From Haliangiales bacterium (lineage in GTDB: Bacteria > Myxococcota_A > Polyangia > Haliangiales > SHYZ01), in contig JBKJOI010000417.1 of NCBI GenBank assembly GCA_046595695.1, positions 1 through 57,368 of the forward strand: a stretch of 57,368 nt of DNA. The letters run 5' to 3'. The notes beneath the pieces were generated by a model, which was not told the DNA's origin, made no database searches, and saw only the letters and a list, made by a program, of their open reading frames with translations. Both the position numbers and the translations under genes were made by a program. This document shows positions 21,023 to 46,236 of this stretch, in pieces (within the stretch, counting starts at the first letter, position 1; every line of letters starts with the position of its first letter).

Positions 21023-21213
21023 GCGCGCGGCAAACAAGGCGCGATCCATTCAGGATCAAGGAGCGCGCGGCGGAGGTCCGTGCCGCGGATCGCATCCTGA
21101 CCGCGGCCCGGTCTGGCATGCGTTCTGCTTTCGCTCGACCACGGAGGCCACTCATGACCACGACTCTTCCGGCGACATCACAAGCTGGGACCAGCAGCCA
21201 TCGCGCGTCCTCG

Positions 21214-29946: not shown

Positions 29947-31530
<1,584 letters not shown>

Positions 31531-36848: not shown

Positions 36849-38249
36849 TCAGGCGGCGACGAGACTGAAGCTCTCGCCGCCGGCGCGCACGACACGGCCG
36901 TCCTTGACGAGCTTCTGCAGGTGCGCGAGCAGCGAGCGCGCCGCGAGCGGGTGCAGCGCCACCGGGACGTCCTCGTAGACCGAGGGCACCAGGTCGAGCG
37001 CGGTGGCGTGGCCGCGCGCGGCGAGCGCGGTCGCGACCCGCTCCTCGCGCCACAGGCGGTGCTTCACGTACTCGGCGAGCTTCGCGGCCGGCGCGGTGAT
37101 GGTCGGCCCGTGCGCGGGCAGGAGCGCGCGCGGCGCGAGCGCGGCCAGGCGCGCCAGCGACGCCAGGTATTCGATCATGTCGCCCTCGTCGGGATCGACG
37201 ACGATCGAGCCGATGCCGGCGACCATGTCCCCGGCGACGATGTAACCTGTGGTCTCCTCGAGGAAGCACAGGTGGCCGGGCGCGTGCCCGGGCGTGAAGA
37301 TCGCGCGCAGGCGCCGCTCGGGGCGCTCACCGTCGCCGGCGAGCAGCTCGACGTGGCCGTCGCGGAGCAGGCGCGTCACCGCAATGCGCCCGGCGACCAG
37401 CTGCGCGGTGATCGGGTGCGCGGCCACCGGCACGCCCAGCCGCTTCGCCAGGTGCGCGGCGCCCGAGACGTGGTCGACGTGGTGGTGCGTCAGCCAGATC
37501 TCGCGCACGCGCCGGCCCTGCGCGGCGAGCGCGTCGAGTGCGTTGTCGAGCGCGGCGCGCTCGTCATCCCAGGGGCTCGCGGGATCGATCACGATGAGCT
37601 CGCGCGCGCCCACGACATAGCAGTTGGTGTGCGTGGCCGGCGGCAGGGTCGGCGTGCGCAGCATCGCGATCTCGATCCCGGGCGCGAGCTCCCACAGCCG
37701 GCTGGCGTGCGCGTCGCGCGCGGTGTCGATGGCCAGGCGCGCCGCCATGCCCTCCGGGCCGTCCACCAAGGCGCGCAGGAGGTACGCGACCACCGGCGAG
37801 GTGAGCCGCTCGCCGCTCGACCAGGCGGCCAGCGCCTCGGCCGGCGTGAGCCACTCGCCCTCGCTCAGCTCGCCGCCGCTCGTGCCCGCCGGATCCGGCG
37901 CGCAGCCGGGCGGGGCCTCGACCAGGTAGTAGGTCGCGTCGAAGCGGATGGGCGCCCACTCGGGCGTGATCGAGCGGCCGACCTCGACGAACGTCGCCGC
38001 GCCGGCCGGGAGCGTGACGCCGGTCTCCTCCTGGAGCTCGCGCGCGGCCGCCGTCAGGCGGGCCGCGGCCTCGCCGGTGGCGCCGTCCACCGGCCGCGCG
38101 TGGTCGGCGTCGTCGACGCGACCACCCGGAAATGCCCAGAATCCTGGGAGAAACTGGAGCGCGTGGGAGCGGCGGACCCAGTACACCTCCATCCGATCGC
38201 CGCGCTGGCGGTGTAGGACGACCACGGACGCGGGGATGGGGTTCGCCAT
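36849..38249 (-). CDS. NUDIX hydrolase fused to an MBL-fold hydrolase
   Basis: The N-terminal Nudix box is GGRVDDAD...AARELQEETGV. The C-terminal MBL domain carries THHHVDHVSG and FTPGHAPGH. Confidence 0.85.
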   Translation of the reverse strand: MANPIPASVVVLHRQRGDRMEVYWVRRSHALQFLPGFWAFPGGRVDDADHARPVDGATGEAAARLTAAARELQEETGVTLPAGAATFVEVGRSITPEWAPIRFDATYYLVEAPPGCAPDPAGTSGGELSEGEWLTPAEALAAWSSGERLTSPVVAYLLRALVDGPEGMAARLAIDTARDAHASRLWELAPGIEIAMLRTPTLPPATHTNCYVVGARELIVIDPASPWDDERAALDNALDALAAQGRRVREIWLTHHHVDHVSGAAHLAKRLGVPVAAHPITAQLVAGRIAVTRLLRDGHVELLAGDGERPERRLRAIFTPGHAPGHLCFLEETTGYIVAGDMVAGIGSIVVDPDEGDMIEYLASLARLAALAPRALLPAHGPTITAPAAKLAEYVKHRLWREERVATALAARGHATALDLVPSVYEDVPVALHPLAARSLLAHLQKLVKDGRVVRAGGESFSLVAA

Positions 38250-38298
38250 GCTGGCCTGACAGAAAATAGCTGACCCGTCGCCTTTCCGGTCCTAGAAT

Positions 38299-38604
38299 GT
38301 GAGGCGAATGGTCAGCGTGACGGCACGCAAAATACGCGAGCACGGACGAGAGCGATCGTCTGTAGGCGTAGGTCGTGTGTATACCGGGTTTCTCATCAGT
38401 TATCCGGTGGTCGGCCGCGGCATGGTCATTTTTCGCGATCCGCACGGGCACCGGATGATCACGACCCCGGTCAAGCGTGTGCTCGGCGAGCCCACCGGCC
38501 AGACCCTCTACATCGAGACCGAGAACAGCGTGTACCGACTGACCTTCCACGGCGCGCCGCTCGTGCCCATGCAGTCGCCGCACCCGGGCGAGGCGACCGG
38601 CTAA
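38299..38604 (+). CDS. small hypothetical protein (start uncertain)
   Basis: Only the 3' two-thirds show G/C-ending codon bias. An internal ATG (MVIFRDPHGHRMITTPVKRV...) may be the true start. No motif recognised. Confidence 0.4.
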   Translation: MRRMVSVTARKIREHGRERSSVGVGRVYTGFLISYPVVGRGMVIFRDPHGHRMITTPVKRVLGEPTGQTLYIETENSVYRLTFHGAPLVPMQSPHPGEATG

Positions 38605-40317: not shown

Positions 40318-41385
40318 CTACTTGACGATCTTCTTGACCACGGCCTCGAGCGCGCCCGATTCGACGGCAGCGCCCACGGCCTTGGCGATGATGCTGAGCA
40401 CGCTCATGGTCGAGCTCTGTTGCTGCTGTTGCTGCTGTTGCTGCGGCGGCGCGGCCGCGGGCGTGGCCGAGCCCATCGCGGCTTGCGCGCTCATGCCGCG
40501 CGTGCCGAAGGGTAAGGCCGGCCCGCCCACCGGTGCCGGCGCGGAGATCCCGCCGCCCATGCCGCCGCTCGGCATCCCGCCGCCCATGCCGCCCCCGCCG
40601 CCGGGCGCGCCCGGCATCTGGCCTGACTGAGGCTTCACCGGGCCGCCGCCCATGCCGCCCGCGGCCGGCATCCCGCCGCCGGGCATCCCGCCGCTCGGCA
40701 TCCCGCCGCTACTCGGCATCCCGCCCATGCCGCCGCCGCCGCCCTGGCCCGGCATCTGGCCGGGCTGCGGCGCCACCGGCATCGAGCTCATGCCCTTGCC
40801 GCCACTGGAGCCGGGCATGCCGCCAGCGCTCATCCCGCCGCCCGCGGGGCTCATCCCGCCGCCGCCAGCGCTCATCCCACCGAGGCTGTTGATGCCTCCG
40901 CCCATGGACGGTGCAGGCGCGGGCGCCGGCGCCGGTGCCGGTGCGCTCAGGCTCGGTCCGCTGCCGCCTGCTCCCAGCCCCGCCCCCAGCCCGGCACCCA
41001 GGCTGATCCCGGCACCGAGGCTGTTGATGCCGCCGCCGCTGCCCGGCGTGGGCATCGGCGCGATCGACGCGGGCGCGGCCATCGGTGGCGGAATCGGCGG
41101 CGGCAGCTGCATCTGCCCGCGGACCTGGGCGGACATCTGCGCCGCGTGCTGATACCACGGCCCGCGCAGCGACATGCAGCGGTCGAGCGCCCCGAGCGCG
41201 TCCTGCGGGAAGCCTCGCCACAAACACGCCGTCGCGTAGTGGTAGTACAGTCCGTCGACGTTCGGCGCCTGCTGAATCGCCTGGTAGAAGCTCTGCGCGG
41301 CCTGATCGTACATGCCACTCTGCATCGCTTGCTGACCCTGCTGGGCCAGCTGCGTCGCGCGGTCGGCACCGCCTGCCATCATCAT
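40318..41385 (-). CDS. Gly/Met/Pro-rich low-complexity protein with TPR-like N-terminus and amphipathic C-terminal helix
   Basis: An ATGATGATG start at 41385 is preceded by GGGGGGA. The frame is maintained through about 690 nt of low complexity (40417-41103). It lies 20 nt upstream of the TerB-like gene. Confidence 0.65.
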   Translation of the reverse strand: MMMAGGADRATQLAQQGQQAMQSGMYDQAAQSFYQAIQQAPNVDGLYYHYATACLWRGFPQDALGALDRCMSLRGPWYQHAAQMSAQVRGQMQLPPPIPPPMAAPASIAPMPTPGSGGGINSLGAGISLGAGLGAGLGAGGSGPSLSAPAPAPAPAPAPSMGGGINSLGGMSAGGGGMSPAGGGMSAGGMPGSSGGKGMSSMPVAPQPGQMPGQGGGGGMGGMPSSGGMPSGGMPGGGMPAAGGMGGGPVKPQSGQMPGAPGGGGGMGGGMPSGGMGGGISAPAPVGGPALPFGTRGMSAQAAMGSATPAAAPPQQQQQQQQQSSTMSVLSIIAKAVGAAVESGALEAVVKKIVK

Positions 41386-41493
41386 GGGATCCCCCCCGGG
41401 TTGTGCGCGTACGACGAGGCACGCGCGCCGATGACTATATCCCCGATCGCAGGATCGTCGTGAGGCCCAACAAGGCGCACTGAGATGCTCGGC

Positions 41494-41565
41494 CTCCGGA
41501 CGGAGTTCCCTGGAAGGCGTTCCAAATACGAACACTGGGCCATGTTGGGTGCTCCATTTTGGAGC
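41494..41565. promoter_or_regulatory. three short palindromes (candidate upstream activator sites)
   Basis: The palindromes are CTCCGGACGGAG (41494-41505), TGGAAGGCGTTCCA (41511-41524) and GCTCCATTTTGGAGC (41551-41565). They lie about 75-145 bp upstream of the -24 element. Confidence 0.3.
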
Positions 41566-41638
41566 TAATACGATCCAAGACGGAACATGCGGCGATCTAT
41601 CTATTGATAATTGCCAGGTTTTGCTTGAGTGTGCGGGT

Positions 41639-41654
41639 TGGCAAAGCGATTGCT
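41639..41654 (+). promoter_or_regulatory. candidate sigma-54 (-24/-12) promoter
   Basis: TGGCAAAGCGATTGCT compares with consensus TGGCAC-N5-TTGCW. The GG (41640-41641) and GC (41652-41653) are separated by exactly 10 nt. It lies in a non-coding, GC-poor region and points toward the bEBP operon. Confidence 0.5.
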
Positions 41655-41664
41655 TTGGAACCCG

Positions 41665-41777
41665 AGCGTTACTCGACGCTGGGACCGGGCAGCAACGTCA
41701 TCGGTTGGGGGGGCCCAACAGGGCGGTGACGGTAGTAGGGGGGGGCCCGGTCGCAGCGTCGATTTTTTTTCTTTTTT
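41665..41777 (+). ncRNA. candidate ~110-nt sigma-54-dependent sRNA or 5' leader/attenuator
   Basis: It is bounded by the predicted start (~12 nt after the -12 GC) and the U8CU6 tract. It contains three nested stems that I paired by hand. Confidence 0.35.
41674..41777 (+). terminator. intrinsic-terminator-like long hairpin followed by T8CT6
   Basis: The outer stem pairs 41674-41689 with 41746-41761 (15 of 16 positions paired, one G-G mismatch). It is followed by A, then T8 (41763-41770), C, then T6 (41772-41777). I saw no comparable T-run elsewhere in the window. Confidence 0.5.
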
Positions 41778-41797
41778 CTGGGTACTCTCCGGGGCTC

Positions 41798-43306
<1,509 letters not shown>

Positions 43307-43309
43307 GGA

Positions 43310-44332
43310 ATGAGTGCTATCGTCGGCTCCGTGTCGTCCGTCGGTGAAGAGCTGTTTTCGCGGCGCGTGATCGTGGTCATGGGCAAAGGGGGCGTGGGTC
43401 GCACCACGGTATCGACCGCGCTCGCGCAGGCGGCGGCGCGGCGCGGCCGGCGCACCTTGCTGTTCCAGGCGGGCGCCAAGGACAAGCTGTCGCGCCTGCT
43501 CGGCATCGCGCCGGTCGGCGACCAGATCGTGCAGGTGCCGGGCGGCTTCTCGGCGGTCAACACCAACCCGAGCGCCGCGATCCACGAGTACGGCCTCATG
43601 GTGCTGCGCTACGAGACCATCTACCGGCTGGTGATGGAGAACCAGGTCATCAAGAAGCTGGTGCGCGCCATCCCCGGCCTGGACGACTACTCGATCATCG
43701 GCAAGCTGTGGTTCCACTCGACCGAGACGCACCCGGCGGGCGGCTGGAAGTGGGACACCATCGTGTTCGACGCGCCCGCGACCGGCCACGCGCTGTCCAT
43801 GTTCAAGATCCCGCGCGCCATCCTCGAGGCGGTGCCCGAGGGTCCGCTGACCCGCGACGCGGTCAAGGTGCGATCCCTGTTCGAGGATCCCTCGCGCACC
43901 GCGGTCGTGCTGACCACTCTGGCCGAGGAGATGCCCGTCACCGAGACCATCGAGATGGCGGCGCGCCTGCGCCCCGAGCTGGGCCTGCACGCGACCCACC
44001 TGGTCGTGAACCAGATCGCGCCCGATCGCTTCTTCCGGCCGGGCACGCCCGCGCGCGTGCTCGACGAGCTGATCGCGGCGGGCGGCGCAGCCGCCAACGC
44101 AAGTGACGACGACGCGCTCGCGCCGCTCGTGCGCGAGGCGCGGCTGCAGCGCTCGCGCCGGCAGCTCAACGAACGCTACCTCGCGCGCCTCGAGGCCGAG
44201 GTAAGGCTGCCGCAGATCCGCCTGCCGCTCCTGCACACGTCCAGCTTCGGCGCAGAGCAGGTCGCGTACCTCTCCGGCGAGATCGAGGCGCAGCTCACCG
44301 CCGCCGGCGCCCGCGTGGCCTCGGCGGGATAG
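43310..44332 (+). CDS. ArsA/Get3-like P-loop ATPase, paralogue 1 (340 aa)
   Basis: Deviant Walker A VVMGKGGVGRTTVSTALA and the DAPATGHAL switch-like block are present. It starts 3 nt after the bEBP stop. Confidence 0.8.
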   Translation: MSAIVGSVSSVGEELFSRRVIVVMGKGGVGRTTVSTALAQAAARRGRRTLLFQAGAKDKLSRLLGIAPVGDQIVQVPGGFSAVNTNPSAAIHEYGLMVLRYETIYRLVMENQVIKKLVRAIPGLDDYSIIGKLWFHSTETHPAGGWKWDTIVFDAPATGHALSMFKIPRAILEAVPEGPLTRDAVKVRSLFEDPSRTAVVLTTLAEEMPVTETIEMAARLRPELGLHATHLVVNQIAPDRFFRPGTPARVLDELIAAGGAAANASDDDALAPLVREARLQRSRRQLNERYLARLEAEVRLPQIRLPLLHTSSFGAEQVAYLSGEIEAQLTAAGARVASAG

Positions 44333-44350: not shown

Positions 44351-45289
44351 GTGGCTTCTAGACGCCCGTCTCGCCTGGCCTATGTAGCGCTGATCTTGCT
44401 CGTCGCGGGGTTCCCCGGAGCAGTCGCGCGCGCGCAAGGCGGCGCGGGAGCGGCGCCGGCGCCGGGTGCGGCCACGCCGAGGCGATCGACGGTGGCGCTC
44501 TTGCGCATCGAGCCGCTCGGCCTCGAGCCCGAGCTGGTCATCCGCCTCGAGGCGCTATTCCGCCTCGAGCTCGAGCGGCTCGAGGGCGTCACGCTGCCGA
44601 CGGGGCACGAGGTCGACAAGGCCGCGGCCGGCGACGCGGCGCTGCGCGGCTGCACCAGCGAGCCCGAGTGCCTGACCGGTATCGGCAAGAAGCTGGGCGT
44701 CGCGTACATGGTCTCGGGCACCGTCGGGGCGCTCGGCGACAGCTACGTGATCAACCTGAAGCTGGTCGAGGTCGCGAGTGGCAAGGAGATCCGCCGCATC
44801 GAGGAGCCGCTGTCCGGCTCGCCCGACGAGCTGATCGAGGCGGTGCGCGTGGCCGCGTACCGCCTGTGGGCGCCCGACAAGCTGAAGGGCTCGATCGCGA
44901 TCCTTGTCGACGTGACCGGCGCCGAGGTCTTCCTCGACGGCAAGCAGCTGGGCAAGACGCCGCTCGCGCAGCCGGTCGCCAACCTGGCGGTGGGCAAGCA
45001 CTCGCTGCGCATCGCCGCGCGCGGCTACTCCGACTTCCTCCAGGACGTCGACGTGCGCTTCCAGAAGAGCACGCAGGTGGTCGTGAGCCTGCAGCGCGCC
45101 AGCGTGGTGCCGGGCGGGCCGCCGGGTGGCGCACCGCTGCGCGCGGCGCCGGTGCCCTGGTACTCATCGACCTGGGGCTACGTGGGCCTGGGCGTGGCCG
45201 CGGTAGCGCTCGGCGTGCTGGTCGGGCTCGCGCTCACCGGCGACGAGGTCGTGGACTGCGATCGCAACCCCGGGGCGTGCGGACTTTGA
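44351..45289 (+). CDS. PEGA-domain envelope protein 1 (signal peptide, C-terminal TM)
   Basis: GTG start with signal LAYVALILLVAGFPGAVARAQG. The PEGA block is GAEVFLDGKQLGKTPL...LAVGKHSLRIAARGYSDF. The C-terminal TM is WGYVGLGVAAVALGVLVGLAL. Confidence 0.7.
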   Translation: MASRRPSRLAYVALILLVAGFPGAVARAQGGAGAAPAPGAATPRRSTVALLRIEPLGLEPELVIRLEALFRLELERLEGVTLPTGHEVDKAAAGDAALRGCTSEPECLTGIGKKLGVAYMVSGTVGALGDSYVINLKLVEVASGKEIRRIEEPLSGSPDELIEAVRVAAYRLWAPDKLKGSIAILVDVTGAEVFLDGKQLGKTPLAQPVANLAVGKHSLRIAARGYSDFLQDVDVRFQKSTQVVVSLQRASVVPGGPPGGAPLRAAPVPWYSSTWGYVGLGVAAVALGVLVGLALTGDEVVDCDRNPGACGL

Positions 45290-46236
45290 GGCAGCTGCGC
45301 TCGATCGCGCTGTCGCTGCTCGTGATCGCGTTCGCGTCGAGCGTGGCCCAGGTGGCCCAGGTGGCCGACGCCGCCGAGCCGCCCGCGGCGAGCGCGCCGG
45401 CCGCGGCGCCCGCACGCAAGGTGGTCATCGCGCCGCTGACCGGCCTGGTCGACGGCGGTCCGGATCTCGCGCCCGCGCAGGCGCTGGTCGGCACCGGCGT
45501 CGGCAGCGTGCCGGGCGTGGTGCTGATCTCCGACAAGGAGCTGCGCGCCGCGCTGAAGAAGGCCAAGCGCAAGGATCTCGAGTCCTGCGACGGTGGCGTG
45601 GCCTGCCTGACCGAGCTCGGTAAGCTGGTCGGCGCGCAGATCGTGGTCGCCGGCGACGTCGGCGACCTGGGTGGCGGCCAGGTCGCGTACCTCATGGCGG
45701 TCGACGTGGGCAGCGGCCGCGAGCTGGGCTCGACCACCGCGGTGCTGAGCGGCGACGCGGCGCAGAAGCAGGGCGAGGCGCGCGCGGCGGCGTACCGGCT
45801 GCTCGCACCGGCGGCGTACGTGGGCACGATCGCGCTGTCGACCGACATCCCGGGCGCGGTGATCTACCTGGACGGCAAGCAGGTCGGCAAGTCGCCGGCC
45901 GCACCGGTCAAGACGTCGGTGGGCACGCACGCGCTGCGCGTGACGCACGAGCAGTACCGCGACTACGTGCGCTTCATCGAGGTGAAGTTCGACGAGACGG
46001 CCAAGATCGATATCAGCCTGAAGGAGTACCCCATCGTCAACGATGGGATGATCGAGAACGGCGGGCGCCTGGGCGGACCGATCGAGGAGCGCGTCGCGCC
46101 CCGGCCCTGGTACCGCAAGGGCTGGGCGGTCGCGGCGATGGGTACCGCGCTGCTGATCGCGACCGCGATCACCGTGGCGATCGTCGCCGACGGCATCGCC
46201 GCCGACCGCGAGGTCATCGTGGGGCCGGAGCCGTAG
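45286..46236 (+). CDS. PEGA-domain envelope protein 2 (paralogue of the previous gene)
   Basis: A TTG at 45286 overlaps the upstream stop (TTGA) and gives (M)RQLRSIALSLLVIAFASSVAQVA. The PEGA block is GAVIYLDGKQVGKSP...VGTHALRVTHEQYRDY. The C-terminal TM is GWAVAAMGTALLIATAITVAIV. Confidence 0.7.
   Translation: MRQLRSIALSLLVIAFASSVAQVAQVADAAEPPAASAPAAAPARKVVIAPLTGLVDGGPDLAPAQALVGTGVGSVPGVVLISDKELRAALKKAKRKDLESCDGGVACLTELGKLVGAQIVVAGDVGDLGGGQVAYLMAVDVGSGRELGSTTAVLSGDAAQKQGEARAAAYRLLAPAAYVGTIALSTDIPGAVIYLDGKQVGKSPAAPVKTSVGTHALRVTHEQYRDYVRFIEVKFDETAKIDISLKEYPIVNDGMIENGGRLGGPIEERVAPRPWYRKGWAVAAMGTALLIATAITVAIVADGIAADREVIVGPEP

Follow-up and report, generated by a model that had tools for sequence, protein, structure and literature searches.

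A predicted structured RNA between a putative sigma-54 promoter and the gene for a GAF-type enhancer-binding protein in a Haliangiales bacterium

Genes, promoter and predicted RNA at the locus

The stretch of DNA analysed here (57,368 nt from a Haliangiales bacterium, 71 % GC; referred to below as the window) carries a predicted RNA at 41665-41777 on the + strand, which is approximately 106-113 nt long when counted from the putative start site to the end of a terminal U-tract, and 105-130 nt long in relatives. Downstream of it, on the same strand, is an operon whose first gene (41798-43306, with a GTG start) encodes an enhancer-binding protein (bEBP) with GAF, Sigma54_activat, AAA_lid and HTH_8 domains, a NifA-like architecture; this is followed by a gene for an ArsA/Get3-like P-loop ATPase (43310-44332) and by two genes for PEGA-domain proteins (44351-45289 and ~45286-46236), which also keep their synteny in relatives. 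A promoter, three stems, a U8CU6 tract and the bEBP start had originally been predicted from the letters of the window, and all of these features are present where they had been placed.

Orthologues of the bEBP are numerous in metagenome bins of Myxococcota, and those with a name include Kofleriaceae, Polyangia and 'Myxococcales'; identity to the window protein reaches 76 % or more in only seven of the 90 % clusters. DNA was retrieved for members of four of these seven close clusters, which together with the window gives five distinct upstream regions: the window itself, L081 (the same as L172), L082, L088, and L169 (the same as L170 and L171). Outside these five are the orthologues P0003, P0004 and P0124, available as protein only, and P0005 and P0008, which are cut N-terminally at contig ends. 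The RNA is found at the same position in each of the four distinct relatives recovered besides the window (bEBP identity of 76 % or more), and at all five loci it lies directly upstream of the operon for the bEBP, the ArsA-like protein and the two PEGA proteins. The ArsA-like gene is syntenic in L081, L082, L088, L169, L172 and also in the more distant L086, and the upstream neighbour of the RNA-bearing loci is divergent (a TPR gene at 40318-41535 in the window) and varies from locus to locus.

Two further neighbours deserve mention. A second bEBP gene, with PocR, Sigma54_activat and HTH_8 domains, lies on the - strand at 29947-31530. In the window it is approximately 10 kb from the RNA locus, but in the distant relatives L083, L084 and L086 it is found close to the GAF-bEBP gene; its product is an alternative candidate for the activator of the promoter at 41639. 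A gene for a NUDIX / MBL / winged-helix fusion protein (36849-38604 in the window, 1190-2932 in L084, 1059-2870 in L086 and 1-718 in L172) and an adjoining small ORF of 81-102 aa with no Pfam match are conserved beside the locus, in close relatives as well as in distant ones.

The predicted sigma-54 promoter of the RNA, TGGCAAAGCGATTGCT (41639-41654, + strand), has the GG of the -24 element and the GC of the -12 element and matches TGGCA-N6-TTGCW perfectly, placing the start site at ~41665. It is the sole perfect match to the sigma-54 consensus in the 57-kb window; since ~0.26 such matches are expected per window by chance, the match alone is weak evidence for a sigma-54 promoter and is not significant. 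The consensus spacing is accompanied by upstream palindromes, and the same layout is seen in distant orthologous loci, while a promoter of the form TGGC-N7-TTGCT is kept in all five RNA-bearing loci. We treat 41639-41654 as a predicted sigma-54 promoter that would depend on RpoN and a bEBP.

The palindromes resemble enhancer sites. One, GTTCCAAATACGAAC (41519-41533), is located 120 bp upstream of the -24 element and another, GATCCAAGACGGAAC (41572-41586), 67 bp upstream, so that the two are 54 bp apart, or ~5 helical turns. In L081, L088 and L169 a palindrome of the type G[TC]TCC-N5-GGAAC is likewise present at the -120/-121 offset, and a site matching GATCCAAGACGGAAC is found at -66/-67 in the same three loci. 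A perfect palindrome, GCTCCATTTTGGAGC (41551-41565), lies at offset -88 and is a possible additional activator site; this offset is occupied in the window only. Two other sigma-54-like sites were seen: TGGCATGCGTTCTGCT at 21114-21129 (+) in the window, which has one mismatch to the consensus, and TGGCACGCGCTTCTCGC at ~6590-6632 of L169, just upstream of the first PEGA gene, where a -24-like TGGCAC is present and the GC of the -12 element is absent. The L169 site is probably due to chance.

Fold, covariation and the terminator-like 3' end

The predicted minimum free energy (MFE) structure of 41665-41780 has a dG of -57.5 kcal/mol, compared to -38.9 ± 3.3 kcal/mol for dinucleotide shuffles of the same segment (n=200); this corresponds to a z-score of -5.7, with none of the 200 shuffles being as stable. 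The centroid structure agrees with the MFE structure, whose ensemble frequency is 31 %. The outer stem, P1, is formed by a 5' strand at 41673-41690 and a 3' strand, GCCCGGUCGCAGCGUCGA, at 41745-41762, and has 17 bp around a mismatch of G41682 with G41753 (pairs 41673-41681/41754-41762 and 41683-41690/41745-41752); A41762, at the end of the 3' strand, closes the stem. P2 (41696-41703 with 41724-41731) has 8 bp including one G·U pair and encloses P3 (41704-41709 with 41714-41719), which is capped by a GGGG loop. A run of seven G (41707-41713) is exposed in and around this apical loop, and a second G-run is found in the single-stranded 3' internal loop, GUAGUAGGGGGGG (41732-41744), that precedes the 3' strand of P1. 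The three stems predicted originally are thus present, though P1 and P2 had been given too short by one pair each; the nested arrangement holds in so far as the stems go, but P1, P2 and P3 are stacked end to end in a single rod-like hairpin, interrupted by an asymmetric internal loop, and do not form a multi-branch structure.

The RNAs of the relatives, folded individually, reach z-scores of -3.9 to -6.8. The segment on the 5' side of P1 is ~8 nt long in the window, and in the relatives it is 18-28 nt long and unrelated in sequence; some relatives have an extra, private 5' hairpin before P1, which is not conserved.

For the analysis of covariation, the five sequences were aligned with MAFFT on sequence only (alignment A5), and a consensus structure was derived with RNAalifold. 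Six of the 30 consensus pairs have changes on both sides, and 93 % of the alignment cells form standard pairs, compared to 29-53 % after displacing the 3' partners by 1-3 columns; depending on the measure (percentage paired, double changes or covariation score), 0 or 1 of 500 column shuffles reached the observed value. P1 is 100 % paired in the five sequences, with two compensatory pairs (A-U to G-C and U-A to C-G) and one change to a wobble pair (A-U to G·U). Double changes occur in three of the eight pairs of P2, which is largely rewritten in L081, L082, L088 and L169 with pairing retained, and compensatory changes are present in P3 as well; the stems are therefore conserved and covary, as had been proposed as a check of the original prediction, and the promoter is kept along with them. 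The parts that do not vary are of a different kind: in L082 and L088 both P2 and P3 are rebuilt with the G7 run unchanged, and all five sequences have the G7 run, the G·G mismatch in P1 and, in the 3' internal loop, 5-8 consecutive G; both G-runs are invariant and are left unpaired in the predicted folds. With five phylogenetically correlated sequences from one narrow clade, the statistics of covariation are thin, and we regard them as supportive, not conclusive.

The strand of the element can be read from the substitutions themselves. Four of them create G·U pairs when read on the + strand, where an RNA from the complementary strand would have A·C mismatches. A covariance model built for the RNA (R1) scores 81-123 bits on the + strand versus 32-37 bits on the - strand (120 versus 33 bits for the window RNA). 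The G·U pattern and the strand scores both point to an RNA made from the + strand, not to a palindrome in the DNA. Taken as a whole, the comparative evidence argues that the element is a real, conserved and structured + strand RNA. A leader peptide or other coding reading was also considered and is ruled out by indels of 1, 4 and 17 nt together with the pairwise compensatory substitutions.

P1 is abutted directly by the U-tract, T8CT6 at 41763-41777 (T8 at 41763-41770, a C, and T6 at 41772-41777). That such a run is atypical here, as was originally claimed, is borne out by a count over the window: T8 and T6 are the sole T- or A-runs of at least six in 57 kb of 71 % GC. In all five loci a U-tract of T6-T9 abuts the last pair of P1, so that a GC-rich stem is followed by a U-tract on the transcribed strand in each. 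In L088 P1 is 3 bp longer (GCA/UGC), and a shorter T6 still abuts the stem; the geometry of the putative terminator is kept here by compensation, with stem and U-tract in direct contact as intrinsic termination requires. We thus predict that the hairpin and the U-tract form an intrinsic terminator, and the 3' ends given for the RNAs are read from the sequence on this basis. A simple scan of 40500-43000 for terminators and sigma-70 promoters found neither; the scan considers terminator loops of 3-8 nt only, and it misses this terminator because the 'loop' of P1 is a 54-nt substructure. As the upstream TPR gene is divergent, the terminator does not serve an upstream gene.

The distance from the U-tract to the bEBP gene is short. 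In the window the GTG at 41798 is 20 nt past the U-tract, exactly as predicted, and the gap to the start codon is 14-20 nt in the five loci. Within it lies a TAnnCT motif (TACTCT at 41783-41788, + strand), which is found 6-10 nt before the start codon in five of five loci, as TACTCT in the window, L081 and L169 and as TAGCCT in L082 and L088. This motif could serve as the -10-like element of a bEBP transcript that has a short leader or none, or could belong to the ribosome-binding region. In the predicted fold of a read-through transcript, a hairpin at 41791-41822 pairs the region of the GTG start with bEBP codons 5-9.

Distribution of the RNA and relatives with an MBL-fold gene in its place

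A scan of the whole window against Rfam 15 at gathering thresholds gave no match, as expected if the RNA is new, and relaxing the scan of 41450-41900 to E-values of up to 10 gave only chance-level matches to MIR531 (17 bits, cut-off 70) and hya (14 bits, cut-off 57). The RNA is previously undescribed and matches no Rfam family. With the covariance model R1, no second copy was found in the window, and no copy in the distant loci L083-L087 and the 80 metagenome loci L089-L168 (the matches listed). Four matches to an RNA pattern in viral contigs were all at chance level by the covariance model (at most 18 bits). A specific DNA pattern of the RNA, which matches the window, L081, L082 and L088, gave zero matches in metagenome contigs, the source samples evidently being outside the collection. 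In genome contigs, the full-length bEBP alignment yielded, among the matches listed, only paralogues at 34-51 % identity (loci L001-L080), and in metagenomes a GAF-only alignment yielded, among the matches listed, relatives at most 56 % identical, which served as RNA-negative controls and in the comparison of MBL genes below. As far as the present data reach, the RNA appears to be confined to one narrow clade.

In at least 12 distant loci, where the GAF domain is 43-59 % identical, the gene directly before the GAF-bEBP gene encodes an MBL-fold (Lactamase_B_2) protein (L083-L087, L089, L090, L103, L106-L108 and L131; for example at 3071-3976 of L086). This MBL-fold gene is absent from all RNA-bearing loci. 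A sigma-54 promoter was found 16-68 nt before the MBL gene in nine of the ten loci examined, and in six of these ten there are palindromes of the GATCC-N5-GGATC type ([GT]-TCC-N5-GGA-[AT]C) 134-170 nt upstream of the -24 element, closely related to the G[TC]TCC-N5-GGAAC palindromes of the RNA loci. The shared enhancer and promoter suggest that this is the ancestral promoter of the bEBP operon and that the RNA is its leader. In the clade of the window, the RNA and its terminator would therefore have replaced a promoter-proximal MBL gene, and such a swap would mean that, in evolution, one element can take the place of another next to an operon's promoter. The MBL protein has a weak likeness to RNase Z and to cyclic-nucleotide phosphodiesterases, well below the family cut-offs; the MBL gene and the GAF sensor together hint at a cyclic-nucleotide feedback circuit, which we consider a lead rather than a finding.

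Possible roles of the RNA and comparison with known systems

The original prediction offered two roles, a discrete sRNA or a leader whose terminator has to be overcome. Both are still alive, and the comparative anatomy, with the 14-20 nt gap and the promoter of the distant relatives, favours the leader. The reading we prefer, and to which we give about an even chance, is a terminator-gated 5' leader of the sigma-54 operon, the terminated form of which is a discrete small RNA. The argument for a leader is that relatives have the homologous promoter as the promoter of their operon, that the gap is only 14-20 nt and that no sigma-70 promoter was found; as the RNA ends in a strong predicted stop signal, it most likely both throttles the operon and becomes a small RNA.

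In such a leader, an activator bound to the G[TC]TCC-N5-GGAAC palindromes at -120 and -67 would open the promoter (41639-41654). Candidates for this activator are the GAF-bEBP encoded downstream, in which case the circuit would be positively autoregulatory, and the nearby PocR-bEBP. Transcription would begin at ~41665, and the rod-like hairpin would then form in the order P3, P2 and finally the 17-bp P1, which closes right before the U-tract, so that most polymerases would terminate. Termination would free a stable RNA, 105-130 nt long, in which both G-runs are single-stranded and exposed, and polymerases that pass the terminator would go on to transcribe the genes for the GAF-bEBP, the ArsA-like ATPase and the PEGA pair. 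Operon gain would thus be set by the terminator, which would restrain a circuit that activates itself, and the freed RNA may act in trans or bind a protein via its G-runs. The sequences themselves show the anatomy of the locus, its conservation and covariation, the strand of the RNA and the homology of its promoter with that of the operon in relatives; transcription itself, the efficiency of termination, the identity of the activator and any function in trans are what we infer.

Three observations do not sit easily with the leader. A bEBP that needs its own activation at the sole promoter of its operon would require another basal source, a problem of bootstrapping. The TAnnCT motif present in five of five loci could act as the -10 element of a short-leader bEBP transcript, in which case read-through would not be obligatory. 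Finally, the invariant G-runs and the G·G mismatch exceed the needs of a plain terminator; they hint that the released RNA, and not attenuation, may be the selected function.

The main rival of the leader is an independent gene for a trans-acting sRNA, where termination is near-complete, the bEBP operon has its own weak promoter after the terminator, and the G-runs act on C-rich targets or on a protein, by analogy with the arrangement of glmY followed by glrK-glrR. We hold this to be possible, at clearly lower probability than the leader. The RNA does have its own predicted promoter, a strong putative terminator and a size typical of sRNAs; G7 and the second G-run stay invariant amid rebuilt stems, as is typical of a seed or a protein-binding motif; the TAnnCT motif offers a conserved -10-like element between terminator and start codon; and precedent exists. 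On the other hand, the 14-20 nt gap leaves no -35-like element, and no sigma-70 promoter emerged from the consensus scan, while the bEBP operon of distant relatives is directly under the homologous promoter. Nor were conserved C-rich complements to the G-runs seen in the start regions of the four operon genes, and the scans with R1 gave no second copy, either in the window or elsewhere among the loci covered.

The precedent closest in architecture is GlmY (with GlmZ, of Enterobacteriaceae), a sigma-54-dependent sRNA whose activator binds TGTC-N10-GACA palindromes more than 100 bp upstream, and where the genes of the activator system, glrK-glrR, are located directly downstream of glmY in the same orientation, with an independent promoter (PMC4152352). 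In both cases activator genes thus follow a sigma-54 RNA directly. They differ in that glrK-glrR are independently promoted, whereas the terminator and start codon at the present locus are separated by a gap of only 14-20 nt; the GlmY activator is a response regulator, in contrast to the GAF sensor encoded here, and there is no similarity in sequence or structure, given the lack of an Rfam match.

The same general theme recurs with unrelated sequences in Qrr1/LuxO, CrcZ/CbrB and NrsZ/NtrC, in each of which an sRNA that ends in an intrinsic terminator has a sigma-54 promoter and is encoded beside a bEBP gene. Qrr1, CrcZ and NrsZ are divergent from or downstream of the bEBP gene and are not known to gate its transcription. 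For the leader, the relevant comparison is with leader attenuators, which share a structured 5' leader and a terminator just before the first gene; the riboswitch-derived SreA and SreB of Listeria are terminated leaders that persist as small RNAs. To our knowledge, few terminator leaders have been described behind sigma-54 promoters. Classical attenuators have a conserved antiterminator, a leader peptide or a ligand pocket, none of which was found in the present RNA.

This last difference bears on a further alternative, regulated antitermination, where a ligand or an RNA-binding protein reads the G·G mismatch, the internal loop or the G-runs, and thereby alters the stability of P1 to allow conditional read-through. 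Non-canonical features are indeed placed inside the terminator stem (the G·G mismatch in five of five sequences and the asymmetric, G-rich internal loop), and the RNA occupies the slot of the MBL-fold gene, a gene that would itself be a plausible feedback element in the circuit of a GAF sensor. Against this, no conserved alternative (antiterminator) pairing, mutually exclusive with the terminator, was found in the five sequences; the segment on the 5' side of P1, which amounts to a leader of ~8 nt in the window, is short and unrelated between loci; the MFE and centroid structures agree, with the MFE structure at 31 % ensemble frequency; and the Rfam scan returned no riboswitch even at E-values of up to 10. 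The absence of a conserved alternative pairing and the unconserved 5' segment leave a classical riboswitch or attenuator unsupported, and with it the riboswitch version of the original prediction; regulated antitermination in the broader sense, by a protein or ligand, is unlikely. Slightly less likely still is the specific proposal that a conditional antitermination switch took over the MBL-gene slot of an ancient sigma-54 operon. If this were true, a ligand or protein would choose between self-amplification of the GAF-bEBP and termination with release of the small RNA, and the feedback arm of the sigma-54 autoregulatory loop would have passed from an enzyme to an RNA.

That the element acts only as DNA, as a protein-binding inverted repeat or a MITE/REP-like insertion, is very improbable: it is a long imperfect inverted repeat, and compensatory changes preserve palindromes in DNA too, but the four G·U pairs of the + strand become A·C on the - strand, the U-tract is one-sided and always abuts the stem, the position is fixed relative to the sigma-54 promoter, and, unlike repeats and mobile elements, it has no other copies in the window, the loci scanned with R1 or the viral contigs.

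In the myxobacterial literature searched, Pxr was the only regulatory RNA encountered. The statement in the original prediction that Pxr is sigma-54-dependent and adjoins a bEBP gene is confirmed: pxr has a predicted sigma-54 promoter and lies between pxrR/nla19, a response-regulator bEBP gene upstream of it, and a gene for NADH dehydrogenase (PMC5568312). The RNA is 108 nt long, is confined to Cystobacterineae and folds into three stem-loops in a row (SL1-SL3), of which SL1 carries the functional loop (PMC5568312, PMC5684412). Both RNAs are thus from Myxococcota, ~100 nt long and made of GC-rich stem-loops, with a predicted sigma-54 promoter and an adjacent activator gene, and in both the sequence of a 3' stem is conserved (PMC5568312, PMC5684412). 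They differ in that pxr is downstream of a response-regulator bEBP gene, whereas the present RNA is upstream of, and in line with, the gene of a GAF-type bEBP; in that Pxr has three separate stem-loops, in contrast to a single hairpin whose outer stem is the putative terminator; and in their hosts, Cystobacterineae only for Pxr, while the nearest named relatives of the present RNA are Kofleriaceae and Polyangia MAGs. It is by context and architecture as described, not by a comparison of sequences, that we set the two apart, and the likeness is only an analogy.

The present RNA would be a second sigma-54-linked structured RNA from Myxococcota, supported by covariation and outside the reported group of Pxr. 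Its position is unusual, being in line between a sigma-54 promoter and the gene of an activator that possibly acts on that same promoter, and if the leader is the correct reading it would be a compact natural example of a terminator used as gain control on a self-activating circuit. We give these points moderate weight, in view of the narrow distribution, the uncultured hosts and a function reached by inference.

The locus also has a practical consequence for annotation. The longest ORF in the bEBP frame (41549-43306, + strand) extends back over both the RNA and the promoter; as gene callers can extend the bEBP ORF over the RNA in this manner (585 aa from 41549), the annotation of the locus needs correcting, and some of the database orthologues of 564-607 aa may be over-extended gene calls likewise.
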